IMG/VR virus record: IMGVR_UViG_3300049822_000176
Coordinates: 1 to 64,000 of that record
Source of the DNA: a virus
Reading direction: 5' to 3' (one strand)
DNA: 64,000 bases
Part shown: positions 598 through 23,210 of the stretch, piece by piece
How the letters are laid out: every line of letters starts with the position of its first letter
Position numbering within the stretch: position 1 is the first letter of the stretch
Position numbers and translations under genes: made by a program
Notes under the pieces: model-generated
Told to the model about the DNA's origin: nothing
Database searches by the model: none
Seen by the model: only the letters and a program-made list of their open reading frames with translations

Positions 598-630
598 ACG
601 GTAGGCACCCCCGGCCCATGATCATTCCGG
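598..630 (-). promoter_or_regulatory. conserved late element copy A (CCGGAATGATC-N12-TGCCTACCGT), 7 nt upstream of ATG 590
   Basis: The minus strand reads ccggaatgatcatgggccgggggtgcctaccgt, then ccccacc, then ATG. Geometry is the same as the copy at 20362..20394. Confidence 0.5.
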
Positions 631-634
631 GCGG

Positions 635-1024
635 TCAGAGAGCGAACCTGAGCGCATCCCTGAGGAACTCGTTCGGTCGATTTCCCGGATGGTTGACGTA
701 CTTCGCGTACACCACCCGGCCGTCTACCGTGAACCGCAGCACGCCGCCCGGTCGGCGCGGAGAGATCCGGTGGGGGCGAGTTCCCAGGGTCACGAAGAGC
801 GCTGCTGGGTGATTGACTGTGATGACGCCTTCGAAGTCGCGTCCCGCGCTGCGGATCTGTGCGCGGATCGTCGCCCCCATGCTGCCGGGGGCGCTCCGTA
901 CCGCCTCCGCCTCCACGCGCAGGAGACGGCGTGTCATGTCGCGGTACACGAGCCCGCCGGGCAGGCGCAGCATCCGCTGCACCCTTGTGCGGTCCAGGTT
1001 GAAACTCGTCGACACAGAAAACAC
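635..1024 (-). CDS. HK97 gp10-like neck/tail-completion protein
   Basis: 129 aa with a GTG start. ...VITVNHPAALFVTLGTRPHRISP...VVYAKYVNHPG resembles the HK97 gp10 family. It lies immediately upstream of the chaperone gene. Confidence 0.65.
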   Translation of the reverse strand: MFSVSTSFNLDRTRVQRMLRLPGGLVYRDMTRRLLRVEAEAVRSAPGSMGATIRAQIRSAGRDFEGVITVNHPAALFVTLGTRPHRISPRRPGGVLRFTVDGRVVYAKYVNHPGNRPNEFLRDALRFAL

Positions 1025-1033
1025 CCGGGCCCC

Positions 1034-1540
1034 CTAGTTTCGGGCCAGCGAGACGACGGCGCGCAGCTCGTTGCCGACGCAGCCGCCGGACGGACCCTGC
1101 GAGGTAAGCGGGCGCAGGATGAAGTCGGCGATCTCCCGGTCCCGGTTCATCTGGCACAGCTTCACCGACACCGCACGGAGCATTTCGTAGGCGTCGCGCA
1201 GCACTTCCTGAGCGGACGTGTCCAGTTCGGCCGTGGTCGGCGCGGTCATCGGATCGTCCGGGTTCGGTGCGCAGCGGACCACTTGGATGATGACCTCGGC
1301 CGCTTCCCATGGCGCATCGCAGGCGTTGCCGACGCGGCGCGTGAGCGGGTCGGGGAAGGTCTCGGTGAGGTAGATGGTGCCGACGGATACGGCGAGGAGA
1401 CCGCAGTCGCATTCGTCCCAGGCGATCAGGCCGGGCACCACGGAGTGTCGGTCGGGTTTCGTGGTCAGCTCGGCGTAGACCGCCTGCTCCAGAGTGGAGG
1501 CGACCGTGTACCACTTGAGCTCGCCCGTGATCATCGGCAT
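1034..1540 (-). CDS. virion neck/connector-region protein (hypothetical)
   Basis: 168 aa from ATG 1540 (MPMITGELKWYTVAST...), 2 nt after the upstream stop. Placed by synteny between an adaptor-like and a gp10-like gene. Confidence 0.55.
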   Translation of the reverse strand: MPMITGELKWYTVASTLEQAVYAELTTKPDRHSVVPGLIAWDECDCGLLAVSVGTIYLTETFPDPLTRRVGNACDAPWEAAEVIIQVVRCAPNPDDPMTAPTTAELDTSAQEVLRDAYEMLRAVSVKLCQMNRDREIADFILRPLTSQGPSGGCVGNELRAVVSLARN

Positions 1541-1542
1541 GG

Positions 1543-2382
1543 TCAGGTCCCCGCTCTGCGTACCGTCGGCCGGTCCACGCTGTACACCCGCGAGCGTTGC
1601 CGCAGCCCGCCCGGATTCCACGTCGCCACGAACATGTCCACCAGATACAGCCCGGTACGCCCCTGCCGGAACAGGGCGCCCACATCCGGATACGAGATCG
1701 TCACACCCTGCCGCACCAACTGCTGCAACCCCGCCGGAAGCTTGCAATCCCCGCCGTCCGCGGCCTTCGCGATCTCACACGCCAACTGGCCCATCGCCAG
1801 CGCAGCACCATCCGGGACGACCTCGCCGAACGTAGCCGTCACCGACCACGTATCAACCTCGCTGTCGTCCTTGGACAGGTCGTTGCAGCGCGGCCACCTG
1901 CCGCCGTCCGTGCGGACCACGATCCGGTTGTTGTCCAACCGGTACGCGCCGGACACCATCGGCGTCCCGTCGATTTTCACTTCGATGATCTGATGCACGG
2001 GCGCGGGCAGTACGAACTCGCTGACGTCGCTGCACGAGCAACTCCCCGGGCATGAGCCGCACGTCAGGTTGAACCACACCCCGCCGATCAGCGCGGGCTG
2101 CGGATAGGAGTGGGCAGACCAGGAGGGGCCGAAGTCGTCGAAGAACGACCCGTCATCACACGACCGCGCGCACGGCCTCAGCGTCACGTTGCACAACCCG
2201 AACCGCATCCCCGTCAACGCCCACAGCGTGTCCGTCGCCATGCTCACGGCGAGCCCCGTCACCGCAGGATTCAGCGTCGACACTTCACACGTCCACGACA
2301 CCGGCCACGGCGAACACGGCCCGAAGTCCGCACCCCCGCCAGGGCTGACACCACTAGCAGGCGTCGGATTGATCACCGGCAC
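1543..2382 (-). CDS. Cys-rich virion structural protein (possible head-tail adaptor)
   Basis: 279 aa, GTG start preceded by AAGGAG, tightly packed in the structural operon. The functional call rests on position only. Confidence 0.5.
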   Translation of the reverse strand: MPVINPTPASGVSPGGGADFGPCSPWPVSWTCEVSTLNPAVTGLAVSMATDTLWALTGMRFGLCNVTLRPCARSCDDGSFFDDFGPSWSAHSYPQPALIGGVWFNLTCGSCPGSCSCSDVSEFVLPAPVHQIIEVKIDGTPMVSGAYRLDNNRIVVRTDGGRWPRCNDLSKDDSEVDTWSVTATFGEVVPDGAALAMGQLACEIAKAADGGDCKLPAGLQQLVRQGVTISYPDVGALFRQGRTGLYLVDMFVATWNPGGLRQRSRVYSVDRPTVRRAGT

Positions 2383-2393
2383 AAGGCGTCTCC

Positions 2394-3575
2394 TTACGGT
2401 GTCGGGAACTTACCCGCGCGCACGAAGACTGCCTGCGCGGGATTGGACAGATCGGTAGCTGTCTTGACCACGGCGATGTACCCGACCAGACCCCCGTTGC
2501 CTTCCACGAAGTACGGGTTGACCGTGTAATTGTTCCCGGCGCCGATGGCCGCCACGGCAGCGGAGAGACTGGCATACGTGGACTGCCCGTAGGTGATGAC
2601 CGTCTGGAACGGCGGATCGTTGGCGAACTGCCACACGCGCAGGATCTGTGACTGGTTGGCGCCCCCGCCTACGGGGGTGAGCACACCGCCGTTGTCGTAG
2701 TTGGCCACGTCCACCACGGTGGTGATGGCGGGAGCCACCGTCGTGTTCTGCAGGATCTGAATGAACTGCACCGGGGCCTGCGCCTGTGTCGCCACCACAT
2801 GCGGGTTGTTGGTGAGCACGTTGTTGTCGTAGTGGTTGAACGACCTGGCGAAAATGGTGCCGGCGCTCTGGTTGAGCTGAAGGTTCGCCCCGTTCGGGGA
2901 GATCACGCCTCCGCTGATGACGAACGCCCCCAGCGCTTCCATCAGGTCGTGGAGTTGTCCCACCGGGTTGGCGAGGACCACGGGTACCGACTGGGACACT
3001 CCGATCACGCCACCCGTGTGCGCGGTCACCCCCAGCAGGATATGGGTACGCCGCTGGCTCACGTCCGGCTTGGCCGCTTGCTGGATCACGGCTCCGGTGG
3101 AATCGATCAGCCAGTAGGTGACCGCGCGCGCGAGTGCGGCCGCGTCCATCGGGACGGTCTGGTCCTGCGTTTTCACCCGAGTGATGACCGGCTCGGACTG
3201 ATCGCCCGCCATGTAGTCGACGATGTATCCGTCCATCGCGCCGATGTCCACCGACGACGGCACGAGGGCGTTCGGGGTCAGCTCCCCACCCGAGGCGACG
3301 CCCGTGGACAAGTCGGCCTGTTCCTGCGACATTCCCACCGTCACACCGAACGTCTCGGTGTCCAGGTGCACCCAGTACTCGCCGGGCTCCGCCCAGAATG
3401 ACAGCACGCCCGTACCGTTGGTGCTCGTCGGGTTCGCCAGCGGCACAGTGCCGGAGGCGTCTGTGTAGAGCGTTGCGAGGGTGCTGGAGTTCTTGGGGAA
3501 GATGCTGGAGGCCACGTTCGCGGCCAGCACCCCGCTGGGGAACCAGAAAGTGTCTGTGTAGTGGGCGAGCGCCAT
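2394..3575 (-). CDS. virion structural protein, function unclear (fibre/decoration-like)
   Basis: 393 aa with ATG 3575. T/N/G/V-rich beta-type composition (…NGANLQLNQSAGTIFARSF…), located in the head-to-neck block. Confidence 0.55.
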   Translation of the reverse strand: MALAHYTDTFWFPSGVLAANVASSIFPKNSSTLATLYTDASGTVPLANPTSTNGTGVLSFWAEPGEYWVHLDTETFGVTVGMSQEQADLSTGVASGGELTPNALVPSSVDIGAMDGYIVDYMAGDQSEPVITRVKTQDQTVPMDAAALARAVTYWLIDSTGAVIQQAAKPDVSQRRTHILLGVTAHTGGVIGVSQSVPVVLANPVGQLHDLMEALGAFVISGGVISPNGANLQLNQSAGTIFARSFNHYDNNVLTNNPHVVATQAQAPVQFIQILQNTTVAPAITTVVDVANYDNGGVLTPVGGGANQSQILRVWQFANDPPFQTVITYGQSTYASLSAAVAAIGAGNNYTVNPYFVEGNGGLVGYIAVVKTATDLSNPAQAVFVRAGKFPTP

Positions 3576-3593
3576 CGGGTTCCCCTGGCGTGG

Positions 3594-4271
3594 TTATGCG
3601 GCGAGTGTGGTCGGGTCACAGGCCACGGTCGGGGGTGCGGTCGTCGTCACATTCCACACCCAGTGCTCGTCGGTTTCGATGCTCGCCCCGGCCGGGAGGT
3701 AGTCGTCGCCGACGAGGGTGTCCCACGTTGCTGCTGCGCCCTGCGTCTCGGACGTGAACTGGAAGATGGTGCGGCCGTTCTCGACGGTCTGTGAGCCGAT
3801 CTTCGTTGCGCCGACGTTCGGCCACGCATGGTAGATGTACCGCTGGTTCCCGGACGCGTCGCACGCCCCGGACCCTGCGACTTCCTGCCACACCTCGAGC
3901 GAGTACCGGTTGGTGGGGTTGCCTCCGGCGACAGCGAAGCCGGTGCCGGTGGTGGGGCTGCCGGTGGTGAGTTCGCGGGCGGAGATGATGTAGGCGATCG
4001 CGGACACGTTCACCTCGCACATCTGCACCGTCAACCCCATGCGCTTCAACGTGGGGTCGTCTTTCTGGTTGACGCACGCCTCACCGGATGCGGTCCGCTC
4101 GAAGAACTCTTGCCCGTCTTCGTAGTCCGGTTCCATCTGGACCTGGACGAATCCGGAGCTCACGGCGACCATGCCGGGAGTGCCGGTGACGGGGATCCCG
4201 CACGCGTTCAAAGCGATGATCCGCATGTGCGTGCCCTTGATCGGAGTCACGCACGTCGACGTAGCTGCCAT
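3594..4271 (-). CDS. virion structural protein (tail-tube-like or capsid accessory; uncertain)
   Basis: 225 aa, AGGAG before ATG 4271. The beta-rich sequence (RYSLEVWQE, RYIYHAWPNVG, TIFQFTSET) recalls major tail/tube proteins, but the gene sits before the connector genes. Confidence 0.5.
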   Translation of the reverse strand: MAATSTCVTPIKGTHMRIIALNACGIPVTGTPGMVAVSSGFVQVQMEPDYEDGQEFFERTASGEACVNQKDDPTLKRMGLTVQMCEVNVSAIAYIISARELTTGSPTTGTGFAVAGGNPTNRYSLEVWQEVAGSGACDASGNQRYIYHAWPNVGATKIGSQTVENGRTIFQFTSETQGAAATWDTLVGDDYLPAGASIETDEHWVWNVTTTAPPTVACDPTTLAA

Positions 4272-4283
4272 AGTGATCTACTC

Positions 4284-5162
4284 CTATTCGGTGGGCACGC
4301 CCAGGGTGATGTGCGCGGCCAGTAGGCAGCACTCGAACCCAATCAGGTAGGTCCGCTCGGCCAGCATCCGGATCGTGTTCGAGGTCCGGTCCAGGGAGTC
4401 CCGCAGCCGCGACACATACGGATCGGAGCGGTACCCCCACGCCGCGCCCGTCGCATAAATCCAGGCGGTGCCGTCCGCGGCGTCGGTCCCGTCGGGGGCA
4501 CTGCCCGTGTAGCCGGTCCCGGCCACGATCAGGTTTCCCGCCGGCGTGACGAGACGTCCGTCGACGAGGGCGGCGAGGTTCCAGGCGGCGAGGGTGGGCA
4601 GGGCGCTGCGGGGGACGTGGATGATGCCTTGTCCGGCGTAGCAGTCGGCGAGCTGCTGTTCGAGGATGCCGAGGGCATGGACGACGTCCGCGCCGCCGGT
4701 GACGAGGGGGGTGGCGACGGTCTGCAGGACGATGTCCCCGTCGCTGCTTTCGGTGTCTGCTGCGAGGTGAGGGAACACGACCGGCTGGCCGCCCGCGACA
4801 CCGGTCCAGAACGCGGTTTCGACCTGTGTCTGCTCGACGCGCGCCAACGCGTCCGAGGCGACCGTCTCAGCGTCGGCGACGCCGACGGGCGAACACTCGA
4901 ACTCGGCATACACCGTGAACGGCAGCGCCCCCCGCAGCTGCTGCTCCACGTTCGCGGTCTTCGCCGGAGGCGTGGGAGGGGCGCCGGTGCCGGTGACGGA
5001 CAGGCATTCGTCGTAGGTGGTGTCGCCGGTCGGGCAGCGTTCCACCCAGGTGATGCCCTGCTGCCAGTGCGGGCCGCCCACGGTCGGGTGCTGGACGGTG
5101 TCCCACAGCCCGTAGGGGAGAGGGGTGAACACTGCTGGCAGGTCGACGAGTTGGCGGGCCAT
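4284..5162 (-). CDS. structural protein with HK97-capsid-like sequence features
   Basis: 292 aa. VETAFWTGVAGGQP, GIIHVPRSALPTL, DGRLVTPAGNLIVAGTGY and AERTYLIGFE resemble conserved blocks of HK97-family capsid proteins. This is from recollection and has not been searched. Confidence 0.45.
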   Translation of the reverse strand: MARQLVDLPAVFTPLPYGLWDTVQHPTVGGPHWQQGITWVERCPTGDTTYDECLSVTGTGAPPTPPAKTANVEQQLRGALPFTVYAEFECSPVGVADAETVASDALARVEQTQVETAFWTGVAGGQPVVFPHLAADTESSDGDIVLQTVATPLVTGGADVVHALGILEQQLADCYAGQGIIHVPRSALPTLAAWNLAALVDGRLVTPAGNLIVAGTGYTGSAPDGTDAADGTAWIYATGAAWGYRSDPYVSRLRDSLDRTSNTIRMLAERTYLIGFECCLLAAHITLGVPTE

Positions 5163-5204
5163 CGGCGCTCACCCCTTTCCCTGGGTTGGTGTCACGGTCA
5201 GGCG

Positions 5205-6965: not shown

Positions 6966-6980
6966 GTTGTTCCTCCGTGG

Positions 6981-7017
6981 TCAAAGGGTGGTTTGCGGGC
7001 TCGTCAACGCCCTTTGA
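6981..7017 (-). promoter_or_regulatory. inverted repeat (TCAAAGGG/CCCTTTGA, 21-nt loop) just upstream of the capsid gene RBS
   Basis: Read directly from the sequence. It lies in the 194-nt lower-GC spacer, which also holds TTGACT-N17-CTATGC on the minus strand (7032..7060). Confidence 0.3.
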
Positions 7018-7159
7018 TCACGGAGGCTAGCGCATAGCACACGCACTGGCAAAGAGTCAATTCTCTTTACCGGTGCGGTAAACATAATGGTCAGACGCTT
7101 GGAGGGGGCGGCGGCGGGGGTGCCGGACGACGCCTCTTATTGCAACTGCACATTCCCAT

Positions 7160-10393: not shown

Positions 10394-12170
10394 TGCTGCT
10401 CCGAGAGATCGTCGTCAGAAAGCCGGTCGTATCCAAATGCGGGGAAAGCTGCCCGATCGTCAGCTGCCCGAACACACTCAGCCGCGCCTCATACACACCC
10501 GACGTCCCCGGCCGTGTCGCCGTCGCCAGCTTCACCGCCGCATGCGTGAACGGACACGAGTAGGCGTGCTGCGCGCACAGGCTCGGGTGCAGCAACTCCG
10601 GCGGGCGGCCCGTCGAGAACCGGACCGCATGCAGGGCGTTCGCCTGACGCGCCATCCGCGCAGCCCGCTCCTCAGCCGCCGCAGCCTGCGCCGCCCCGTC
10701 CACCGGCGGCGGAGCGCCGGACGCATCCGGCGGCGTCCGATCCTCCGCCGGCTCGTCCGACGCCGGCGTGCCGGCTTCTCCTGGTGGTGCGGCGGCCACG
10801 GGCTGAATGGTGATCTGGTCGCCCGTGAGCTCCGACAGCGCGGACCCGGCACCAGAGGGAAGGGTCTTGATGATGACCTTGAGGCCCTGTTCCTTCAGCT
10901 CCTCCGCTGTCGGCTTGTCCGTCTCGTCGAAACCGGTCTCGCGGCGGAGGGCGTCGCCGTTGATCTCCAGCCGGTCGTACAGCTGGATGGCGTCGTCGGA
11001 GCGGTCGGGGCGCAGGGTCAGTTCGGACATGTCGTACCAGACAACCCAGTTCGCCCAGTCCTCTACGCGGGAGGCCCTGAGGCGCGGCTGAAGGTAGCCG
11101 GTGGTGAGGGCCGCGGAGATGAGTTCGGCGTCGGGTGCGACGTTGACTTTCAGTGATGTCTCGTCGACTGCCCACGCGTTCCAGTGGTTGAGGTCGCCCA
11201 TCCCCAACAGGACTTCGGGGGGCACGTTGAGCTGCGAGGCCAGGCGCTTGATCGCGGAGTCCCGCTTCTCGATGATCTTCTCGTCGATCTTCAGGGTGAA
11301 GTCGATGTGGCGGATCTTCTCGACGTACTCGCCCGGCACCCGGATGGGCATCGGCAGCACGCCCGATGCCGTCCCCGGCTGACTGATCGCCGTGCGCCCG
11401 TTCTCGATCCACTCCTCCATGAACGGGTCCGCGGCGTCAGCGAACTCTTCCCGCACGGGGAAGGTGATCTCGTCGGGGAAGATGACCACTCCGGCCGACG
11501 CGAGGCGCGACAGGTACTGGGCTTGAATGTGCCGGTTGACGAGCTCCAGTTCCCGCATCGTCGAGCGGGCTGCGCGGGCCGGGCTGTCGGCGATGTGGTG
11601 GTAGCGCTTGTTCGGCCGCCATACCCGGATCGGCGCCATGGAGTCGGCGGCGAGGGGCCGCCAGTTCGTTCCGGTGCGGGGACTGTTCTCGTCGATGACT
11701 TCGTAGTGGCCGCGCGCTGCCTGGACTTCGTCGATGGAGCGGACGGACCATTGCTCGATGCCGTTGATGTTCTCGACGATCAGATAGCCCTCGCCGGGGA
11801 CTGCGAGTTGTGTGCCGAGTCCGGCCATGATCTGGGCTTGTCCGGCGACGCCTCCGGCGAACTGCGTCATGAGGTCGACGGCGGTTCCGGCGTCGGTGCG
11901 GACTGGTTCATCGGTGCCGGGCTCCAGCTTCGCGGCGTAGAAGCGGACGCGGGAGAGCATGTTGGCTTCCCAGTCGGCGGCGTACCGGAATTCACCGAGG
12001 GTGTCGTAGTACTCCCAGGCTTCGTTTTGCCAGGCGTCGGGGGTGCGGATGAGTTCGGTGCGGGGGCTGGTGACCGGTGCGGCGGCGGCGGTGACGGCCT
12101 GGGGTTGGGGGTTCGGTGTGGGGCGTGCAGGCACAGGGCCGCGCCGTGTGAATGCGTGGTACCAGGCCAC
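10368..12170 (-). CDS. portal protein
   Basis: 600 aa, GTG start with AGGAGG 5 nt upstream. Its size and its position between terL and the MuF/protease gene fit a portal. The central sequence is portal-like and the tail is acidic/Pro-rich. Confidence 0.8.
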   Translation of the reverse strand: MAWYHAFTRRGPVPARPTPNPQPQAVTAAAAPVTSPRTELIRTPDAWQNEAWEYYDTLGEFRYAADWEANMLSRVRFYAAKLEPGTDEPVRTDAGTAVDLMTQFAGGVAGQAQIMAGLGTQLAVPGEGYLIVENINGIEQWSVRSIDEVQAARGHYEVIDENSPRTGTNWRPLAADSMAPIRVWRPNKRYHHIADSPARAARSTMRELELVNRHIQAQYLSRLASAGVVIFPDEITFPVREEFADAADPFMEEWIENGRTAISQPGTASGVLPMPIRVPGEYVEKIRHIDFTLKIDEKIIEKRDSAIKRLASQLNVPPEVLLGMGDLNHWNAWAVDETSLKVNVAPDAELISAALTTGYLQPRLRASRVEDWANWVVWYDMSELTLRPDRSDDAIQLYDRLEINGDALRRETGFDETDKPTAEELKEQGLKVIIKTLPSGAGSALSELTGDQITIQPVAAAPPGEAGTPASDEPAEDRTPPDASGAPPPVDGAAQAAAAEERAARMARQANALHAVRFSTGRPPELLHPSLCAQHAYSCPFTHAAVKLATATRPGTSGVYEARLSVFGQLTIGQLSPHLDTTGFLTTISRSSNGFAHRSR

Positions 12171-12200
12171 GTGTGCCTCCTGCTCGCTGGTCTGCGGCGC

Positions 12201-12233
12201 AGGGTAGACACGACCCAGGGAAGATCATTCCGG
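12201..12233 (-). promoter_or_regulatory. conserved late element copy C upstream of portal gene
   Basis: The minus strand reads ccggaatgatcttccctgggtcgtgtctaccct, 30 nt before GTG 12170. Confidence 0.5.
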
Positions 12234-12359
12234 GTGTGGGAAGGGGCCGCCTGCGGAACACCGGGCGCAGGCGGCCCCACTCCATCACCAGGGCCCCAAG
12301 CCAGGACCCTGCCCACAGACCGCACAGTACGCGCTGCTACGCCCACTCCTGTCCGGCGA

Positions 12360-12740: not shown

Positions 12741-12769
12741 GCGTCGATTGTATTAACCAGACCGGTGGC

Positions 12770-13192
12770 CTACGCCCACTCCTGTCCGGCCACCAACGCA
12801 CCCGCACCCCACACCGCAACCCACACCAACAACGGCAACGGCAAACCCACCACCGCCCACACCCCGCCCGTCACCCCCGCCGCAATCCAACCCGACGCAC
12901 ACCACGGGCACGAGATCAACTCGGCCAGCCAGAACGGCGAACGCCGCCACCGGCGCACATACCGCTGCCGCAGATCGTCGTCCGGGTCATATGACCACGT
13001 CTCCCGGATGATGGCCTGCGCAGACGGCGACGCCTCGACGTAGCGTTCATGCTCGGCAAGGGTGAGCTCACGCCACCCCCCAGCCAACCGGTCACGCGCC
13101 CACAGCACCGGAGGGAACGTGTCCTCCACCACCAACTTCGTCAGCCGGTACACGGCCAGCGACATCACGAGGAGCAGCAACCACACGCTCAT
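12770..13192 (-). CDS. DUF1360-like membrane protein
   Basis: 140 aa. N-terminal TM segment, CPWCASGW motif and C-terminal TM segments as in the DUF1360 family. The start overlaps the upstream stop. Confidence 0.65.
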   Translation of the reverse strand: MSVWLLLLVMSLAVYRLTKLVVEDTFPPVLWARDRLAGGWRELTLAEHERYVEASPSAQAIIRETWSYDPDDDLRQRYVRRWRRSPFWLAELISCPWCASGWIAAGVTGGVWAVVGLPLPLLVWVAVWGAGALVAGQEWA

Positions 13193-13437
13193 GCCGTCCC
13201 CTCCAGCGCCGCGCTCAGTCGGTCACGCAGCAAAGCCACGTTGTCCCGATCCAACAGCACGTCCTTCGTCGAGCCGTCGCACTCGATACCGAGGCGCACC
13301 TTGTCGTGGAAGGCCGTCACGGACACATCGACAACAGCCGTGGCGCTGCCGTGGCCCTCGTAGTGGGCTGCCGCGCCGTCTTCCGGGACACCCACGATGT
13401 CCGGGCCATCGCCGCCAACCGTCGTCCAGATGCTCAT
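13189..13437 (-). CDS. hypothetical protein
   Basis: 82 aa from ATG 13437 (MSIWTTVGGDGP...), 5 nt after the terL stop. Confidence 0.55.
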   Translation of the reverse strand: MSIWTTVGGDGPDIVGVPEDGAAAHYEGHGSATAVVDVSVTAFHDKVRLGIECDGSTKDVLLDRDNVALLRDRLSAALEGTA

Positions 13438-13442
13438 GCCGG

Positions 13443-14868
13443 TCACCGTAGCCGCCCGCCGAGGATCTGCTTTCTGGCCAGACCACCACCCAACGAACCC
13501 GTGCCGCGCGCAGCCGTCCCCACCAACTTGAGCTGCCACGCCGGCCACACCATCGCGTCGAGTCGATCAGGTGACCAGCCGAGTTCCGGATACCAAGTCG
13601 CGAGCTGGTCCTCCAGTTCGGGGAACACGCCGGCCATATGCCACCGCCCCTGCGCTGCGAGGGCGGCGACGGGCTGCGCGCGCACCACCTTCCCTCGCGT
13701 CGCCGTCACCGTGCGGATCGGGATGTCCACACCGAGCGCCTCCGCCGCCGTCCGCAGCGTCGCCACGGCCATAGCCCCGCCATAGTTGATCTCACACGTG
13801 ATCTCATCGGCTTCCCAGTCGACCGCCGCCTGCACCGCACGACGCCCCCACTGATCCGGCGACAGCTTGCACGACCGGTCATCGAGGACGAAGCCGTGGT
13901 GCTGCGGCCGCTCTTGCGCCTGAGCGCGCACGAGGAGTGCATCTTCGCGGCCCAGCGGCGAACCCGGCAACGCGCTCGGCAGCAGGAGCCCCGACTTCCC
14001 CACGACGACAATGCCCTGCTCCCCGGCCCCGCCCGACGGGTCGACACCGACGGAAATCCTGGTGAGCTCCGGTACCTCGTCGGGCCGGACACGGGTCGCT
14101 TCAAGTGTGGCGCGCGTCCACAGGGCGTCGGTGGCTTCGTCGATGAGCCGGCCTTGGAGTTCCTGCGCGCCGATGTCGGTGCCGGCGTAGGCGTCTTCGA
14201 GGGCGTCCTTCACGGACTGCTCGAGGTGCGGGTTGTCGTACATCGTGGCGTGCGTGTGGACGATGCCGGGGATGTCCCCGCTCAGCATGCGTTTCAGGAG
14301 CGGGCGCGGCTTCGGGGTGGTCGCGGCAATCCAGTGCGGGTGGGGTCCGGAGCGCAGACCGAACCGGAGCTGGTCGTAGGTCTGCTCCATGTACCGCCAC
14401 GTCGCGAACTCCTCCATGACCGCAAGGCACGAGTTGCCCGCCGCGCGCAGTCGCTCCACGTCCTCGGGGGTGTGGGCCCCGAGCAGCTTCGCCTGCGACC
14501 CGTTCGGCCAGCGGATGACGGTACCGCCGGGGGCCTGCACGAGGCGGGCGCCGGGGTCGGCGTTGCGGATGCCGCCGGGCCCTTCGTACATGGAGGTGAC
14601 GCCGTCGCCGATGGTGGGCGCAATGATCGCGATCCAGTGCGGTACGGGGCCGGGGAGGCAGGGGGGTCCGTCGACGTGCTGGCGGACGTACTCGGCGCAG
14701 GCTTTCGACTTGCCGGCTCCTCGGTAATCGACCGGCCATCAAAAGCCAGCCGGTCCAATCACCTCCCGGGGGGATCTGGTGGGGTTGTGGTTGCCAGCGC
14801 GGCTTGAGGTGGGCGGCGAGGAGTTCGGCGGCGCGTTGCGCTACGCGGGCCTTGTCCTCTGCGGTCAT
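13443..14868 (-). pseudogene. terminase large subunit, reading frame broken at 14725..14738 (needs a +1 shift)
   Basis: - The N-terminal frame (ATG 14868) reads MTAEDKARV...PPGGDWTGWLLMAGR, then junk.
- The next frame reads (stop)WPVDYRGAGKSKACAEYV...MYEGPGG..., with the P-loop and the nuclease half running to 13443.
- No start codon lies upstream of the P-loop in the second frame. Confidence 0.8.
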
Positions 14869-14875
14869 GCTTCGG

Positions 14876-14908
14876 ATTGTGACGGTTGTTGGGCGAGGTG
14901 TTGTCCGG
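14876..14908 (-). promoter_or_regulatory. degenerate late element copy F (CCGGA-N22-CACAAT), 7 nt upstream of terL ATG
   Basis: The minus strand reads ccggacaacacctcgcccaacaaccgtcacaat, then ccgaagc, then ATG. The CCGGA-to-CACAAT spacing matches copy E. Confidence 0.35.
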
Positions 14909-14911
14909 AGG

Positions 14912-15496
14912 TCAGCGGCGGCGGGCGTCTCCTCGGTTGGGGAGTCCGGCGGAGTTCAGGCCGTGATGGTGCCATGTCCAGCTGCGGCGGGGGAGGTGGA
15001 CGATGTGGGCTCCGGCGGCAACGCAGCCGAGGGTGAAGGCGTAGTCCTCGCCGGACACCTGGGTGTTCGGGTCGCGGGTGAAGCCGACCTGTTTGGCGAG
15101 TTCGGTTCGGACGAGGATGGTGATGGTTGTGCTGTTGGGGCAGGTGGGGTCGAAGGTGCGGCCGTAGAACATGGGGAATGGGTCGGTGCCTCCGTGCACG
15201 CGGAACCACGGGTACACGTAGTCGGCGCCGGTCTCGGACGCGTGGGCGAGGAGGTGTTCGATGTGGTCGGGGTCCATCTCGTCGTCGCTGTCGAGGAACG
15301 CGGTCCACTCTGTCTGGACGAGGTGGAGGCCGTGGGCGCGGGTGATGGCCGCGCCGAGGTGGTGGATGTCCTCGGCGAGGATGTGTTCGACGGGCACGGT
15401 CTGCGCGCGGACTGAGCGGGCGCACCGGTCGAGCATTCCGTTCGCGCGCCGCTGCTCATGGAACGGCGTCACGACCGTGACACCTGGCTTGATCAC
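14912..15496 (-). CDS. glycosyltransferase family 2 (small GT-A)
   Basis: 194 aa. VTVVTPFHEQ... and a DSDDEMD (DxD) motif. The start overlaps the upstream stop. Confidence 0.7.
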   Translation of the reverse strand: MIKPGVTVVTPFHEQRRANGMLDRCARSVRAQTVPVEHILAEDIHHLGAAITRAHGLHLVQTEWTAFLDSDDEMDPDHIEHLLAHASETGADYVYPWFRVHGGTDPFPMFYGRTFDPTCPNSTTITILVRTELAKQVGFTRDPNTQVSGEDYAFTLGCVAAGAHIVHLPRRSWTWHHHGLNSAGLPNRGDARRR

Positions 15497-16065
15497 CGCG
15501 TTTGCTCCGCGCGCTCAGCGAGCCATCGCCGGACAACCTGGTTGTGGCGGGCGTCTGCGAGCGCGTCATGCTCACTGCCCTCCTGCTTGGGGAGTTCGCC
15601 CCAGGCGATGCCGAGGCGGCGGGCTTCCTGCTGGATGTCGTGGGTGAACATCGGCACGCCCGGCGGCAGATCCACCATCAGCCCCCACAGCCAGCAGAGG
15701 CGGACGTGGTCGTAGGCGCCGTAGTTCGCCCACAGTTCGACGTCGTCGGTGGACTGGATGAACGCGGCGACTTCGCGGGCGATCTGCGCCTGCGGCTTCA
15801 CGCGCGGGTCGGCGTAGTGGAACAGCCAGCGTTTCGACATGCTGTTCCGCATGTCGCCGTGACCCTTTGGGAGGTGCGGTACGACGTTCTTCATCAGCCA
15901 CTTGTGGCGTCGGATGCGTCGCACGGGCATGTCCCGGTTGGCCGCGTAGTACTCGCGGCCGTCGTCGGCGACGAGCGCGATGCTGATCAGCTCGATCGTG
16001 TACCGCTTCCGCAGCCAGCCCGTCCGGTACTCGATGAACTCCAGGTCGTAGTCGATCGCGCTCAC
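15493..16065 (-). CDS. Rv2179c-like DEDDh 3'-5' exoribonuclease
   Basis: 190 aa from GTG 16065 (GTGA overlap). IDYDLEFIE...ISIALVADDGREYYA...WANYGAYDHV...SEHDALADA matches the exonuclease motifs of that family. Confidence 0.65.
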   Translation of the reverse strand: MSAIDYDLEFIEYRTGWLRKRYTIELISIALVADDGREYYAANRDMPVRRIRRHKWLMKNVVPHLPKGHGDMRNSMSKRWLFHYADPRVKPQAQIAREVAAFIQSTDDVELWANYGAYDHVRLCWLWGLMVDLPPGVPMFTHDIQQEARRLGIAWGELPKQEGSEHDALADARHNQVVRRWLAERAEQTR

Positions 16066-16502
16066 CGGGGCGTGCCCTTCCAGAGGATCTCGTTGTCGCC
16101 CTGGATCAGCAGCTCGTGCGTGGTCCAGTACTTGATCCCGTAGTCCGCATTCGCCGCGAACGACCCGTCGAAGTAGTGGAACGACGGGATGCACCAGAAG
16201 GAGACGTGCGTCGGGTCCGCGAACGCGTGCCACGTCCCCGACAGGGCGTTCGGCACCCGGATCTCGAACACGCCACCCGGGCGCAGCACCCGGTGCGCTT
16301 CGTTCATCACGTCGATCCGCGGCTGCCCGGCCGGAATGTGCTCCATCACATGCGACGCCCGGATCGCGTCAATGCTGCCGTCCGCTGCAGGCCACGGGAC
16401 TTGCTGTGCTTGCCGCTGCCATTCGCCGCGCCCGTGGGCGGGGTCGAGGTTGATCCACCCGGCCTGGACGAGGTGACCGCCACCGATCTCTATGCTCGTC
16501 AT
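16062..16502 (-). CDS. class I SAM-dependent methyltransferase
   Basis: 146 aa from ATG 16502 (ATGA overlap). IGGG...NLD...SIDAIRASHVMEHI...VLRPGGVFEI is Methyltransf_11-like. Confidence 0.7.
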   Translation of the reverse strand: MTSIEIGGGHLVQAGWINLDPAHGRGEWQRQAQQVPWPAADGSIDAIRASHVMEHIPAGQPRIDVMNEAHRVLRPGGVFEIRVPNALSGTWHAFADPTHVSFWCIPSFHYFDGSFAANADYGIKYWTTHELLIQGDNEILWKGTPR

Positions 16503-17170
16503 CCGTGCCTCGCACTTCCTTGATAGGCCAGCCACGGCGTGGCCAGATGATTCCCCGGCAACGCCTGCGGGCGCAGCCCCATGTTCCGTAGCGCGAACGG
16601 CTGGGAGATCTGATCCTGGAACGACCAGGCGTGGGTCTCCGCGACCCAGCCCGCACCCAGCTCCCGCACCGCATCGGTGTGCCGGCGCGCGATCACGCCG
16701 GTCGCCCACAACCCCCAGCCCTCCGGATGCCCGGCCGCCCGATACGAGTCGGCCTGCTGGAGTACCGGCTCTCCCGCATACTTAGACAGCCCGGCCGACT
16801 CCTTCGCCTCCGCGTACAGGCAGTCCCGCCACGGATGGACGAACTGGGCGATCGGCTCGACGTCCGTCAGCCCGGCCGTGGCCTCGACGGCGAACCGGTC
16901 GGAGACCACCCGGAACGACGCATCCACCCACAAGCTGACGGGTGCGCTGGTGTACTTCCATGGCTCGTACTTGGGGTGCTTCGCCGCCCGGTTCGGATGC
17001 ACGCCCGGCCGCGGCTCGTACACCAGCGTCCAGCCCTGTGCGGCTTCGGCGTCGGGCGGAGTCCCGTCGTGGACGCAGATCCATTCGACGTCCACGCCGG
17101 CCTGCGGGAGGACCGGCTTCAGCTCGTCGTACCCGTCGTAGATCGCGGTGATCAGCGCAACTTGGCTCAT
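16499..17170 (-). CDS. DUF616-type glycosyltransferase-like protein
   Basis: 223 aa from ATG 17170. VALITAIYDGYDEL...NRAAKHPK...LWVDASFRVV...VHPWRDCLYAEA...FQDQISQPFAL follows the DUF616 pattern. Confidence 0.65.
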   Translation of the reverse strand: MSQVALITAIYDGYDELKPVLPQAGVDVEWICVHDGTPPDAEAAQGWTLVYEPRPGVHPNRAAKHPKYEPWKYTSAPVSLWVDASFRVVSDRFAVEATAGLTDVEPIAQFVHPWRDCLYAEAKESAGLSKYAGEPVLQQADSYRAAGHPEGWGLWATGVIARRHTDAVRELGAGWVAETHAWSFQDQISQPFALRNMGLRPQALPGNHLATPWLAYQGSARHG

Positions 17171-17982
17171 GCCGGAGACCGATACCACTCCACCGTCGCC
17201 GCCACACGCGCCCAGTCGTGTTCCGGCTTCCAGTCCAGCCGATCCCACCCATCCCCCGCGGCGACGATTCGCGTCGGGGTTTCACCCGTCCGCATCGGGA
17301 GATGCTCCACCCCCGCCGAAGATCCCGTCTCCTCCAGCACGAACGCGGCCAGCTCGTTCACCGTGACCGCCACCCCCGTGCCCGCGTCGAGGGTGACGTC
17401 GTCGCCGTGACCGGTCGCCTCCACCAGCATGCGTGCCACGTCGTCGGTGTGGACGAGGTCCATGGTCTGCTCGCCGTCGCCCCACACCGGGAGCGGGCGG
17501 CCCTCCCACGCGGCGCGCGCGAAGGTGGGCAGGATCTTCTGCGGGTGGCCGGGACCCCACTTCTGGCCGGGGCCGTAGGCGTTGAACGCGCGGACGTGGG
17601 AGACGGGGATGCCGTAGGCGGTGTGCCAGGCCGTCGCGAGACGGTCGGCGCAGACTTTCGTCGCCGTGTACACGGAGGGGAACACGGGCGGCATGGTGAT
17701 GCCGACGTATCCGGCGCCGTGCTCTTCGCACCAGCGGAGGATCCGCAGGGTGCCGATGACGTTGGCGTGGACGGCGGACTCCGGCGCGTCGAACAGCTCC
17801 GACGTGCCGAGCATCCCCGCGAGATGGATGACGGTGTCCGCGCCGGCCAGATGGGAGAGGTCGCCGAGGATGTCGTTGCCGTGCGCCCGGTCGAACGACC
17901 ACGCCTCATGGCCGGCGTTCTCGGCGGCGTGGATGGTGGCCTGTCCGAGGAAGCCGGACCCGCCGGTGACTGCGATCTTCAC
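17167..17982 (-). CDS. NAD-dependent sugar epimerase/reductase (extended SDR)
   Basis: 271 aa from GTG 17982 with AGGAG upstream. It has GGSGFLG (the Rossmann motif) and YTATK (YxxxK). Confidence 0.8.
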   Translation of the reverse strand: MKIAVTGGSGFLGQATIHAAENAGHEAWSFDRAHGNDILGDLSHLAGADTVIHLAGMLGTSELFDAPESAVHANVIGTLRILRWCEEHGAGYVGITMPPVFPSVYTATKVCADRLATAWHTAYGIPVSHVRAFNAYGPGQKWGPGHPQKILPTFARAAWEGRPLPVWGDGEQTMDLVHTDDVARMLVEATGHGDDVTLDAGTGVAVTVNELAAFVLEETGSSAGVEHLPMRTGETPTRIVAAGDGWDRLDWKPEHDWARVAATVEWYRSPA

Positions 17983-17995
17983 TGGTGTCTCCTGT

Positions 17996-18673
17996 TCACC
18001 ACGGGGTGCGGCCCCACTTGATGCGGAAGGTCTCCCGGTCGCGGCCTGCCTGCTCGCGGAGCTCGGGCCGCTCCTGCGTCGAGATGTTGGGGCAGCGGTG
18101 CTCCACCGGGATCCCGGGCACGAGGAGCGCGCCGCCCTGCTCGCGGGCCGTCCAGTCGGCCGAGTCGTCGCCGTACCACCAGGCGAGGTCCTCGTCGAAG
18201 CGCTGGCCGTGCTCGCCGCGCAGCATGAAGGCGTAGCCGGTGATCCGCTGCCGCAGATCGATCGGCTCGGCTTTCGTGTGCAGGATCTGCCGGCGGCCGC
18301 CGTGCTGGTCGGGGTAGGCGAGGACGGCCGTGGTGGCGCGCATCGCCTTCGACAGCGTGCTGATCCAGCCCGGAGGGACGGTGACGTCGGAGTTGAGGAC
18401 GGCGATATCCCACGCCTCCGCGCGCGCAAGGTGGGCGCCGGCGTCGGCGAGGGCCAGGCCGACGTTCCACAAGGTAGAGATGTTCGGCGGGTCGATGGGC
18501 ACGCGGGCGACCGCGACCTTCCCGTGCCAAGGGTCGGGGTCGATGGCCGGCGAGGACAGGTTGTCGATGACGATGACCCGGTCGACCTGGTCGATCACGG
18601 AGTTGATGCAGTCGGCGAGCATGTCATGCCGATCACGGGCGGGGACGACCGCCACCCGATGCACGGCGCTCAC
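17996..18673 (-). CDS. glycosyltransferase family 2-like
   Basis: 225 aa from GTG 18673 (GTGA overlap). VAVVPARDRHDMLADCINSVIDQVDRVIVIDN... is a GT-A-like N terminus. Confidence 0.6.
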   Translation of the reverse strand: MSAVHRVAVVPARDRHDMLADCINSVIDQVDRVIVIDNLSSPAIDPDPWHGKVAVARVPIDPPNISTLWNVGLALADAGAHLARAEAWDIAVLNSDVTVPPGWISTLSKAMRATTAVLAYPDQHGGRRQILHTKAEPIDLRQRITGYAFMLRGEHGQRFDEDLAWWYGDDSADWTAREQGGALLVPGIPVEHRCPNISTQERPELREQAGRDRETFRIKWGRTPW

Positions 18674-19332
18674 GCGGTGGCCGCCTGGGTGTGCAGGGCC
18701 GCCCGCAGTAGCGAGTCCGGAGTGCCCATGTCCGACCACACCCCAGGCACTTCGCGCACGTCCATCAGGCCGCGCCGCAGGTACCAGTTGTTGACGTCGG
18801 TGATCTCCAGCTCGCCCCGCGGTGACGGCACCAGCGTCCGCACCACGTCGAACACCCGGTCGTCGTACACGTACAAGCCGGTGACCGCGAGATCCGACAC
18901 CGGGTCCTTCGGCTTCTCCACGATCCGCCTCACCCCAGCATCGAAGATCCCGAACGCTTCCGGCCGGTCCGTCCGGCTCGTATAGATCGCCGGGCCGCCC
19001 GGCATGGTGAAGTCGGCGGAGAAATAGTTGTCGCCGAGGATCACGGGGAACAGGCCGCCGACGTAGCCCTCCGCGAGGGCGAGCGCGCCCGCGATGCCGT
19101 CGGGCTGCTCCTGCACCCGGTAGGTGAACCCGGAGCCGAGGAGCTGCGCGAACCCGCCGACCTGCTCGCCGCCGGTGATGATGAGGATGTCCGTCACGCC
19201 CATCGTCCGGAGCGTGGCGATGGGGTGGTAGATCATCGGCCGGTCGTAGACGGGCAGCAGATGCTTGTTCACGACCCGCGTCGTATCGCCGAGGCGGGTG
19301 CCTCGGCCGCCCGCGAGGATGACGCCCCTCAC
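18670..19332 (-). CDS. rmlA: glucose-1-phosphate thymidylyltransferase-like nucleotidyltransferase (short form)
   Basis: 220 aa from GTG 19332 (GTGA overlap). GVILAGGRGTRLG...NKHLLPVYDRPMIYHPI is the RmlA signature. Confidence 0.75.
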   Translation of the reverse strand: MRGVILAGGRGTRLGDTTRVVNKHLLPVYDRPMIYHPIATLRTMGVTDILIITGGEQVGGFAQLLGSGFTYRVQEQPDGIAGALALAEGYVGGLFPVILGDNYFSADFTMPGGPAIYTSRTDRPEAFGIFDAGVRRIVEKPKDPVSDLAVTGLYVYDDRVFDVVRTLVPSPRGELEITDVNNWYLRRGLMDVREVPGVWSDMGTPDSLLRAALHTQAATA

Positions 19333-20354
19333 GACTGCACCAGCATGTTCAGCCACGCCGGGCGCGCCGTGTACCAGTCGACGATGTCTGTAAGGGTTTC
19401 CTCCAGCGATCGGGACGGCCGCCAGCCTGCGTCGGCGAGCTTGCGGCCGTCGAGGGCGTACCGCAGGTCGTGACCGGGCCGCGACGCGTGGAACGACACC
19501 AGCTCGTACTTCAGGGGCTTGCCGATGATGTCGGCGATGATCTGCGCGACCTCCAGGTTGGAGCGTTCCTCACCGACGATGTGCCACAGCGACGGCCGGT
19601 CGTCGTCGGGGTAGCGCTGCGGTTCCGTGTGCTGGAGGAGGTGCAGCCACGCCCCGGCGAAGTCGCGGGTGTCGATCCAGTACCGGGAGCCAGGGATGCC
19701 GTCGGGGCTGGAGTAGATCGGCACGGTCTCCCCGGCAAGGACCTTGCGGATCACCGTCGGCACGAGCTTCTCCGGGCCTTGGCCGGGGCCGATCAAATTC
19801 ATGGTGCGGGTGAGGACGACCGGCAGGCCGTAGGTGCGCCACCACGCGGTCGCGAGAGACGACTGTGCGGCCTTCGACGCGGCATACGGGTTGGACGGGA
19901 TGATGGGGTCCCATTCGCGGTGCGCATAGCCTGCGGGGGCCGGCCCGTACACCTCGTCGGTGTCCATGTGGAGGAACACCTTGGGCTGGACTTGGCGGGC
20001 GTATTCCAGCAGGTTGACCATGAGTTCGGTGTTGTTGCGGACGAAGCGGGCGGGGTCGGCGATGGATTCCTCGACGCCGCTGTTGGAGGCGATGTTGAGG
20101 ATGTAGTCGACGGGTCCGATGTCGTCGATGAGGGTGGCGGGCATGGGTGTGGCGAGGTCGTGCATGACGGTGGTGACGCGGTGGTTCCATGCGCCGGGTT
20201 CGGGGGCTTGGTCGAGGGCGTCGGCGAGGCGTTGGGAGTTGCCGTGGTGGCGGAGTGTCCAGGGGCAGACGATGTCGGCGTCGGTGTGGGTGAGGAAGTG
20301 GGCGAGGACGTGGGAGCCGACGAATCCCGCGGCCCCGGTGAGGAGGATGCGCAT
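19329..20354 (-). CDS. rmlB: dTDP-glucose 4,6-dehydratase
   Basis: 341 aa. It has TGAAGFVGSH, DTDEVYG and YAASK motifs, and is the first gene of the cassette. Confidence 0.8.
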   Translation of the reverse strand: MRILLTGAAGFVGSHVLAHFLTHTDADIVCPWTLRHHGNSQRLADALDQAPEPGAWNHRVTTVMHDLATPMPATLIDDIGPVDYILNIASNSGVEESIADPARFVRNNTELMVNLLEYARQVQPKVFLHMDTDEVYGPAPAGYAHREWDPIIPSNPYAASKAAQSSLATAWWRTYGLPVVLTRTMNLIGPGQGPEKLVPTVIRKVLAGETVPIYSSPDGIPGSRYWIDTRDFAGAWLHLLQHTEPQRYPDDDRPSLWHIVGEERSNLEVAQIIADIIGKPLKYELVSFHASRPGHDLRYALDGRKLADAGWRPSRSLEETLTDIVDWYTARPAWLNMLVQS

Positions 20355-20361
20355 GCGGGGG

Positions 20362-20394
20362 ACGGTAGACAGCCGCCCGTGAAGATCATTCCGG
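20362..20394 (-). promoter_or_regulatory. conserved late element copy D, 7 nt upstream of rmlB-like ATG
   Basis: The minus strand reads ccggaatgatcttcacgggcggctgtctaccgt, then cccccgc, then ATG 20354. It starts 2 nt after the terS stop. Confidence 0.5.
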
Positions 20395-20395
20395 G

Positions 20396-20950
20396 TCAGG
20401 TGGTACCGCTGCTGCCCGCGCCCAACAGGTGCTGGTGTGCTGCGCCGAGCGCTAGCCTGCGCTGCTCGTGATCCAAGTCCAGGGCGTCCAACGCCGCCGA
20501 CAACGCGGCCGCCACCAGCTCGCCCTCCAGGTCTAGGCGGCGTTCCAGGGCGACCATCACGCCCGCGTCGACAGCCTGTTTCGCGGTGACGGCGGCGAGC
20601 CTGCGCTCGTCGCGGGACTGCTTCAGCCAGCCCACCACATCCCGCGGCGGGTTCAGGGGATCACCACCCTCCGCGATGTGTTCCCTCAGGCGTTCGGTGA
20701 TGATCGTGTCGACGTAGGCGGCCCGGTTCGTCGCGGTACGCACCAGTCCGAGGAGCGCCTCGTGGGGGGTGATGTTCTGCTCGGCGGCGATCTCTTGTGC
20801 CATGGCCCAGGCCTCTTCGACTTGTGGGTGTTTGCCGCGGTGCCAGACGCAGGCGCCGAGGCCGGGATGCTGGGTGCCTTGGCCGGCGCGGTGGGAGCAC
20901 ATGCGGCCGTTGGCCTGGCGGGTGGGGCAGCGCGCCGGGTAGACGGTCAT
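20396..20950 (-). CDS. terminase small subunit (zinc-ribbon type), putative
   Basis: 184 aa. N-terminal C-x..-C...GTQHPGLGACVWHRG motif and a helical C-terminal half, as in actinophage small terminases. It heads the packaging genes. Confidence 0.55.
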   Translation of the reverse strand: MTVYPARCPTRQANGRMCSHRAGQGTQHPGLGACVWHRGKHPQVEEAWAMAQEIAAEQNITPHEALLGLVRTATNRAAYVDTIITERLREHIAEGGDPLNPPRDVVGWLKQSRDERRLAAVTAKQAVDAGVMVALERRLDLEGELVAAALSAALDALDLDHEQRRLALGAAHQHLLGAGSSGTT

Positions 20951-20956
20951 GGGTGG

Positions 20957-20989
20957 ATTGTGGCCCGGCCAGGTCCGGTGATCTTCCGG
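20957..20989 (-). promoter_or_regulatory. late element copy E (CCGGAAGATC variant ... CACAAT), 6 nt upstream of terS ATG
   Basis: The minus strand reads ccggaagatcaccggacctggccgggccacaat, then ccaccc, then ATG 20950. Confidence 0.4.
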
Positions 20990-21000: not shown

Positions 21001-21033
21001 GTGGCCCTATCCCGGGTGTCGGGGTAGGGCCAC
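21001..21033 (-). terminator. imperfect 14-bp hairpin between the 296-aa gene and terS
   Basis: gtggccctatcccg / cggggtagggccac (13 of 14 paired) with a 5-nt loop, read directly. Confidence 0.4.
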
Positions 21034-23083: not shown

Positions 23084-23099
23084 GTGGTCCCCCTCGTTC

Positions 23100-23167: not shown

Positions 23168-23210
23168 ATTCGTCTAGAAAGTTGGCGGCGGTCCGTGAGA
23201 CCATGCCCCT

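Follow-up and report, generated by a model that had tools for sequence, protein, structure and literature searches.

A conserved bipartite element upstream of the virion genes of a temperate Streptomyces phage: a putative class of late promoters

Results and Discussion

A recurrent element upstream of the late genes

We analysed a 64,000-nucleotide (nt) stretch of viral DNA (positions 1 to 64,000 of the IMG/VR record IMGVR_UViG_3300049822_000176; hereafter referred to as the window), in which a short bipartite element recurs upstream of late genes. The window has a GC content of 69%, and nearly every gene is on the minus strand. Domains were annotated with Pfam and PHROG scans of about 70 open reading frames (ORFs). 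On the minus strand, from 54.3 kb down to position 1, an immunity/early region is followed by the virion genes, which begin at about 21 kb with a terS-like gene and continue with an eight-gene sugar cassette, terL, and the genes for the portal, a polyprotein, the major capsid protein (phrog_777), a connector and the tail.

The element consists of a box, CCGGAA(T)GATC, a spacer of 16–17 nt, a YANNNT hexamer in which the A at position 2 (A2) and the T at position 6 (T6) are fixed, and a further 6–7 nt leading to an ATG; a stop codon or a GC-rich hairpin precedes it. The six sites of the original prediction (A to F) are all present as quoted, on the minus strand, at the coordinates that follow. 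Site A (598..630) comprises the 11-mer CCGGAATGATC, exactly 16 nt, TACCGT, 7 nt and the ATG (590-588) of a 148-aa gene in the tail-assembly-chaperone position, and site D (20362..20394) has the same layout before the sugar cassette (20354-14912, with the ATG at 20354). In site C (12201..12233), the 11-mer is followed, again after exactly 16 nt, by TACCCT and then by 30 nt containing AGGAGG, up to the portal GTG at 12170. Site B (9042-9009) lies inside the polyprotein ORF, and has the 11-mer, 17 nt, CACAAT and 31 nt with GGGAGG before a GTG at 8977-8975. Site E (20957..20989) is a variant with CCGGAA-GATC, 17 nt, CACAAT and 6 nt, followed by the ATG (20950) of the first late gene, called terS-like solely on account of its position. 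Site F (14876..14908) is a weak variant with CCGGAC, 21 nt, CACAAT, 7 nt and the terL ATG at 14868; the stop codon of the upstream glycosyltransferase gene is 3 nt before it. The fixed distance that had been predicted between the box and the hexamer was borne out, with TACCGT/TACCCT or CACAAT located 16–17 nt after the box. The claim that all six are copies of one 33-nt family stood for A, B, C and D, which carry the 11-mer, but not in full for E, which is one base shorter, or for F, which keeps only CCGGA, N21 and CACAAT.

The genes directly served by A, D, E and F lack a ribosome-binding site (RBS), and all start with ATG, 7 nt after the hexamer (6 nt at E). At A, D and F, the preceding gene ends in a stop codon 2–4 nt before the box, and the entire gap of about 40 bp is occupied by the element. 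The window contains four exact copies of the 11-mer (at 620, 9032, 12223 and 20384), every one of them on the gene strand, where shuffled sequences give an expectation of 0.03, and no copies with one mismatch. A relaxed scan of the window (CCGGA, N21–23, YANNNT) gave 15 matches on the minus strand and one on the plus strand, of which only A, D, E and F had a start codon 6–7 nt downstream at a real gene start; it detected no element in the early region. No copies of the box were found between 23 and 57 kb or in the immunity region. The partial match previously reported at 57263-57273 lacks both CCGG and a hexamer at the proper distance; it is located near attP, in an AT-rich spacer, and does not belong to the family.

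Conservation among relatives

About 50 related IMG/VR contigs, as well as Streptomyces prophages, carry the element at the same gene junctions, with diverging flanks and spacers. A scan of IMG/VR with the portal protein identified 18 loci (69–84% identity), 15 of which had enough upstream sequence for analysis. The exact 11-mer was present in 13 of these and CCGGAACGATC in two, and all 15 had a TANCCN hexamer 16 nt after the box, with unalignable flanks. Junction counts were anchored on the start codons of orthologous genes, to avoid selection by motif, and distinct upstream sequences were counted. On this basis, the element was present before the terS-like gene in 20 of 21 sequences, the sugar cassette in 13 of 15, the portal gene in 30 of 31, terL in about 19 of 22 and the chaperone-position gene (site A) in all anchored sequences. 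At the terL junction, only CCGGA and ACAATCC are conserved; site F is unconvincing as a family member when considered alone, but the same residues are conserved at this junction in relatives. A seventh junction, outside the window, precedes a zinc-ribbon gene located after the tape measure gene (12 sequences). Some metagenome contigs have an eighth copy, before a glycosyltransferase gene matching 62274-63323, where the window has none. There are seven sites per genome (eight in some), all in the late region.

Only two positions of the box vary, T7 and T10, each to C. The hexamers of the seven site classes (TACCGT, TACCCT, TAACCT, TAGCCT, CACAAT, CACACT, CACCCT, CATCCT, CACCAT and GACAAT, with CACCCT, CATCCT or CACCAT at the sugar cassette in some relatives) are looser, with invariant A2 and T6. 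In all genomes, box and hexamer are 16 nt apart at A, C, D and the sites of the seventh class, and 17 nt apart at B and E. The leadered sites have an RBS and mostly use GTG.

Equal frequency on both strands, which according to the original prediction would have spoken against it, was not observed: in 201 kb of late DNA from 19 relatives, all 53 occurrences of the core were on the gene strand, and in 147 kb upstream of terS it occurred twice on each strand. An exact scan of IMG/VR (box, N15, CTACC) returned 86 stretches, and 80 of these, on 52 contigs, were listed; all but two chance matches among the 80 belonged to this family, in gene orientation and before the same genes. Searches starting from terS, WhiB, gp43180 and the integrase led into the early regions of relatives and brought out no co-occurring regulator. 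Other phages of 50–60 kb share the window's early and integrase modules, and in 451 kb of such modules no box with a hexamer at promoter spacing was found. The box thus appears to travel with the structural module, the early genes being mosaic. In distant portal relatives of lower GC content (L020, L021 and L025), the portal gene is preceded by a different conserved promoter-like signal (GGGTTGAT, about 15 nt, CGTTCCGTTA), and other branches of the portal family may have late-promoter motifs of their own.

A probable promoter of the sigma-70 type

The layout of the sites corresponds in several respects to that of promoters. A hexamer with A2 and T6 is the signature of -10 recognition by the sigma-70 family, and a second element lies at a fixed 16–18 bp upstream. 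The sites also have the layout of activator-dependent late promoters, with a usable -10, no -35, a phage-specific box over the -35 region, and copies confined to one region. At spacings of 16–18 nt, the candidate -35 hexamers ATGATC, AATGAT and GAATGA match TTGACA at three of six positions at most, and a consensus scan found no site. The layout of leaderless genes is seen at sites A, D, E and F and at their orthologues: an ATG with no Shine-Dalgarno sequence, after a C-rich stretch of 6–7 nt downstream of the hexamer, such that, by geometry, the A of the ATG falls 7–8 nt after the hexamer. The constant partner of the box is the hexamer rather than the start codon, because the portal and site B starts sit 30 nt away with an RBS in between. 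We consider it probable that the sites are late promoters and that most of the late units are leaderless. The original prediction of a late promoter class with leaderless transcripts is backed in this respect by comparative evidence from spacing, about 50 genomes, strand, region, the use of ATG without an RBS, and upstream hairpins.

From the observed sequence, spacing, conservation, and strand and position bias of the element, we infer the transcription starts, their timing, and the existence and identity of a factor, as follows. The YANNNT hexamer would be a -10 of the primary-sigma (HrdB-type) pattern, and the 11-bp box, 16–17 bp upstream at about -40 to -30, would take the place of a TTGACA-like -35. 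The host RNA polymerase with its primary sigma would read the -10, and a dedicated specificity factor (an activator, or a remodeller of or substitute for sigma region 4) would read the box. A combination of host polymerase and box-binding factor is favoured because the -10 is loose, sometimes with C or G first, while the box is invariant. At the terS-like gene, the sugar cassette, terL and the chaperone-position gene, the RNA would start on the A of the ATG and be translated leaderless; at the portal gene and the internal polyprotein start, the same promoter would yield a leader of about 23 nt carrying the RBS. The 30-nt leader formerly assigned to site C is in fact the distance from the hexamer to the GTG. 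The late region would be split into at least seven separately initiated units, two of them following terminator-like hairpins, and box-dependent recognition would keep the promoters silent until late. Considered as a whole, sigma-type bipartite late promoters of this kind, in a roughly 70-kb temperate Streptomyces siphovirus, provide the best explanation, and we hold it with fairly good confidence.

Several observations weigh against this explanation. The box matches no promoter element known to us, and, although it contains a GGAAT of the extracytoplasmic function (ECF) type, the spacing of about 23 nt from there to any CGT/GTT element is too long. Some hexamers begin with C or G, which is poor for the primary sigma acting alone, and the terL site F keeps only CCGGA and ACAAT. 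Site B is located in coding sequence, where the element forces the peptide AGMILAAS, and its conservation could partly be due to protein constraint. Finally, no regulator was common to all motif-bearing relatives in the parts of their early regions that were compared.

An ECF-sigma promoter (GGAAC/T, N16–18, CGTC/GTT) was rejected: GGAAT at box positions 3–7 and CGT at positions 31–33 would be separated by 23 nt, where about 16–18 nt is needed, and CGT is absent from the CACAAT site classes. The SigR, SigC, AdpA and Zur boxes, which bear some similarity to the element, can be set aside because of their spacing or because of the invariant CCGG. A literature search yielded no description of the motif.

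Upstream hairpins and other candidate promoters

Two of the sites are preceded by GC-rich, terminator-like hairpins on the minus strand. The first (12243..12278) has a 13-bp stem and ends 9 nt before site C, and the second (21001..21033) ends 11 nt before site E. The minimum free energy of the 60 nt upstream of the portal site was -37 kcal/mol (median of the relatives, -34) and that for the terS site was -30.5 kcal/mol (median, -28.8); the values for the remaining site classes were between -13 and -24. Transcription that terminates and then re-initiates would fit this pattern at the portal and terS sites.

Two other genes have promoter-like sequences of another kind. A canonical-looking candidate for the capsid gene (7024-7052, minus strand) consists of TTGCCA, N17 and TAGCCT, and one for the cI-like repressor gene (54523-54561, plus strand) of TTGCTT, N18, CAGTCT, N6 and a GTG at 54559. 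The repressor gene appears to be leaderless, a layout that parallels that of lambda cI expressed from PRM. Since the capsid and repressor genes use TTGNNN -35 elements, the box probably marks a promoter class of its own, confined to virion genes. The most abundant virion protein would have a second, different promoter type. The region upstream of the capsid gene (6966-7090, minus strand) is conserved and relatively AT-rich, and the capsid promoter lies partly within an inverted repeat (7042-7078), the arms of which covary between relatives; downstream, the leader of about 60 nt contains a conserved GC hairpin. A 20-codon mini-ORF, MCSCNKRRRPAPPPPPPPSV (7091-7153, minus strand), starts 6 nt after the polyprotein stop codon and is kept between the polyprotein and capsid genes in all the relatives examined. 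Its polyproline run suggests a regulatory leader peptide.

An element within the polyprotein gene

The polyprotein ORF containing site B (10393-7160, minus strand) encodes 1077 aa with RNA-ligase-like, MuF and protease parts. In the 24 relatives with an identifiable start, and in the window, the frame upstream of the box is open for 314–601 codons. An RBS and an in-frame start are found 31 nt after CACAAT (28 nt in two relatives). Site B probably defines a nested gene, from which the C-terminal protease/scaffold-like part can be made separately by means of an internal promoter. The lambda C/Nu3 genes have a comparable nested arrangement. If this is true, the internal promoter would set the ratio of the full-length protein to the nested protease/scaffold product.

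The search for a factor reading the box

None of the approximately 70 ORFs of the window contained a sigma domain in the Pfam and PHROG scans, which detected only a WhiB-Zn-ribbon fusion, several helix-turn-helix (HTH) proteins and a zinc-finger protein as possible regulators. Neither of the regulators put forward in the original prediction was conserved across the relatives in the regions compared. The 127-aa family of gp22700 (22700-23083) was rejected as a universal factor, with homologues in only seven of 16 relatives. Its slot, conserved 1.5–3 kb upstream of terS and divergent from a small HTH-like gene, is occupied in seven other relatives by an unrelated WYL-domain protein (Pfam WYL, 27.7 bits; hhalign probability of 0.1 between the families), and three relatives have neither. 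The late-strand gene of this divergent pair thus belongs, in relatives, to one family or the other, which suggests an exchangeable regulatory slot close to the start of the late region. The 127-bp gap between the two genes holds the palindromes CTGCCAACT / AGTTGGCAG (22700-23576 and loci L196-L213). The second candidate, a 262-aa HTH protein (44248-45036, phrog_1590), has a weak, sub-threshold PHROG match to a 'late transcriptional activator' family; no homologue of it turned up in the motif-bearing relatives, and a RuvC-like gene occupies its position in L137. The WhiB-Zn-ribbon fusion was similarly poorly conserved, with a counterpart in a single motif-bearing contig (38% identity). This protein (43685-44251, minus strand) has a WhiB domain and two copies of a Cys-rich motif (CGTxxGYxxH...CxxC), the last of which, CGTRSGYQKH...CRQANTDADNRLRRTG, shows much stronger conservation in other phages (78% in L138 and L228) than does the WhiB part. 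An AlphaFold model of the terS-like protein (pLDDT 78), which was considered as a possible regulator, showed a zinc ribbon and long helices, with no significant match in the PDB, and gave no indication either way of such a role. Three readings fit these results: a factor encoded in parts of the genomes that were not compared, a factor in or near the late module, and a host protein.

The best-surviving alternative is that the promoters are as described but the box is read by a host alternative sigma or transcription factor, with no phage factor involved, timing being provided by the host protein, by replication or by read-through. It would account for a box that is invariant in about 50 genomes with mosaic early regions, for the lack of a common regulator in all relatives, and for a slot upstream of the late genes filled by two unrelated proteins. 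However, the box and its geometry occur only with this structural module, with two chance matches outside it among the 80 IMG/VR stretches listed. In a metagenome scan with at least 120 matches, at least 47 of those listed were before the family's four TACCGT-type junctions and at least three before the glycosyltransferase homologue; a handful of GC-rich ones with start-codon geometry look like further family members, one more weakly matched an integrase, and the rest were chance matches in coding sequence or low-GC DNA. The matches listed did not suggest a host regulon, and the phage-like appearance of every GC-rich one with start-codon geometry argues, if weakly, against a host reader. Moreover, a temperate phage must keep its late promoters silent in lysogens, and the hexamer is primary-sigma-like and unlike any alternative-sigma -10 known to us. 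We therefore consider a host reader improbable, although it retains appreciable weight.

A repressor-binding role, in which the 11-mer would silence late transcription in lysogens in the manner of the stoperators of cluster A mycobacteriophages, is very unlikely. Stoperators of the cluster A type are present at many sites across the early and late regions, including the early lytic promoter. Like the box, they are asymmetric, in a single orientation and intergenic (PMC3203893), and the box likewise has one orientation relative to transcription and occupies short intergenic gaps, often abutting stop codons. A stoperator does not explain the fixed distance to a -10-like hexamer and to start codons, or the presence of only seven or eight copies, all late, with none at immunity or early promoters. 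Furthermore, the immunity repressor is only 42–79% identical in other phages with this integrase module, yet the box is invariant in the family.

Least probable of all is an element acting in RNA, as a processing site generating leaderless mRNAs or as a translation signal for genes without an RBS: its position directly upstream of such start codons and its superficial similarity to the start-associated sequences of cluster K (PMC3203893) are outweighed by a spacer that is not conserved, the absence of a Shine-Dalgarno core, the location about 30 nt further from the start at the portal and site B with an ordinary RBS in between, the hairpins upstream of two sites, which argue for re-initiation, and the lack of conserved structure or covariation (RNAalifold consensus of -1.4 kcal/mol with a covariation term of +0.37, no shared structure, and no Rfam matches). 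The packaging or RNA-processing signal mentioned as a less favoured reading in the original prediction is likewise unsupported, given that each genome has seven scattered copies and that no RNA structure is conserved.

Returning to bipartite late promoters, we tentatively propose, as a possibility somewhat short of even, that the box is read by a hitherto undescribed phage-borne specificity factor travelling with the structural module. Sigma appropriation would then have a counterpart in actinobacteria, with a compact (about 40 bp) orthogonal late promoter starting exactly on the start codon, used seven or eight times per genome, and once within coding sequence for a nested gene.

Comparison with known systems

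By design, the element seems to belong with activator-dependent phage late promoters, and it was not matched to any specific system. In the middle promoters of T4, a MotA box of 9 bp, AT-rich and centred at about -30, is used with AsiA-remodelled sigma-70. The promoters described here resemble them in having a host-type -10 (TAnnnT), a phage-specific box replacing the -35, many copies and a temporal class, but differ in that the box has 11 bp and is centred at about -35, in an actinophage of 69% GC with mostly leaderless transcripts predicted. Phage factors that remodel sigma have been reviewed (PMC7403470). No homologue of MotA, AsiA, C or Ogr was identified, nor any analogue of MotA or AsiA.

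The late promoters of P2 and P4 depend on Ogr/Delta, and the sites for C and Ogr are dyad-symmetric and bound by dimers. In Mu, the late promoters are described as having recognisable -10 hexamers and no typical -35, with C bound upstream (PMC2582627). The Mu C and P2 Ogr systems share with the present one several late promoters, a usable -10, the lack of a -35, a site overlapping the -35 region and a temperate phage, whereas our box is asymmetric. Actinobacteria themselves use 'sigma adaptation', in which an activator motif substitutes for the -35, as with PafBC and the RecA-NDp motif, and at SARP promoters. These have in common with our sites the actinobacterial setting, the TANNNT -10 of the primary sigma and an upstream motif in place of the -35, but the sequence and position of the box are different: the PafBC motif is nearer the -10, and SARP sites consist of directly repeated heptamers. 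WYL-domain proteins adjoin the late region in seven of 16 relatives and not in the window, and we draw no link to PafBC-type control.

The start-associated sequences of cluster K are short asymmetric repeats, in one orientation and a few bp upstream of mostly ATG starts, that are absent from host genomes; they contain the Shine-Dalgarno core AGGAG, 3–7 bp from the start, in the place expected of an RBS, and are located in the non-structural half of the genome (PMC3203893). The element is similarly asymmetric, in a single orientation, near ATG starts and clade-specific. Unlike these sequences, which have no paired -10 hexamer, it is bipartite, without a Shine-Dalgarno core, and located in the structural half. 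The sites also resemble actinobacterial leaderless units, with TANNNT 6–7 nt before an ATG and no RBS, a leaderless layout that is also found in Streptomyces. It is standard in actinobacteria, as seen in a survey of mycobacterial leaderless genes (PMC4633059). The invariant 11-bp upstream box distinguishes our sites from ordinary leaderless promoters.

Late-gene control in actinobacteriophages is poorly understood, and this uncultivated family (about 50 IMG/VR contigs and Streptomyces prophages) provides an unusually clean, testable promoter class. The 11-bp box could be used as bait for the factor, and the geometry predicts exact transcription starts. If orthogonal, the 40-bp cassette of stop codon, promoter and ATG would offer a compact part for use in engineering Streptomyces.

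The phage, its host and other features of the window

A cI-like gene and a tyrosine integrase gene (54.6-56.6 kb, plus strand) lie in the immunity/early region; then come RecT/YqaJ, exonuclease, C5-methyltransferase, WhiB fusion and HNH/DUF5131 genes. Beside the integrase gene is a tRNA 3'-end fragment (56761-56804) with phage genes on both flanks, and relatives carry homologues of 62274-63323 and 63550-63732 after the tape-measure region. The window therefore appears to be a temperate phage genome in attP form, circularly permuted. Host DNA at 57–64 kb, as in a prophage with host flanks, was excluded, because the genes there follow the tape-measure region in relatives. About 7.5 kb of the genome is absent from the window, as estimated from the longest contig with an identical terS-like protein (71,478 bp). 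The host is, judging from close relatives integrated in Streptomyces chromosomes (Streptomyces caniscabiei, with a prophage of the family in strain NE06-02D, Streptomyces sp. A012304 and Streptomyces sp. NBC_00444), a Streptomyces. A megablast of 24 kb against the phage collection returned nothing, indicating no close cultured phage, and the best identity of the capsid protein to cultured phages was at most 37%, with cluster-B-like phages of Gordonia, Mycobacterium and Microbacterium. The first late gene has 345 homologues.

At 57–62 kb, genes occur on both strands, including those for a 356-aa XRE-family protein and a collagen-repeat ORF. The sugar cassette (14912-20354) encodes two NAD-dependent epimerase/dehydratases, a nucleotidyltransferase, three glycosyltransferase-like proteins, a methyltransferase and an Rv2179c-like exoribonuclease. 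It is a conserved cassette, situated between the terS-like gene and terL, and six of its genes occur in every one of the 20 relatives sampled. One more glycosyltransferase-like gene (62274-63323) is found in the tail region, and, together with the cassette, suggests virion glycosylation. In terL (14868-13443, minus strand), a 7-nt insertion, TCGATTA (14725-14731), breaks the Walker-A motif: relatives have LLMAGRG[AS]GKSKA in a single frame, whereas in the window a change of frame separates the first 47 codons from the remaining 426. The insertion may leave this phage copy unable to package its DNA, or it may be an assembly error. Finally, the C5 cytosine methyltransferase ORF (45033-46574, minus strand) has the motifs FPCQDVS and ENV and a middle part that looks non-coding, together with a second frame (45245-46075) containing repeated TPRARD/TPRASD motifs, which may correspond to an inserted element or a frameshift.

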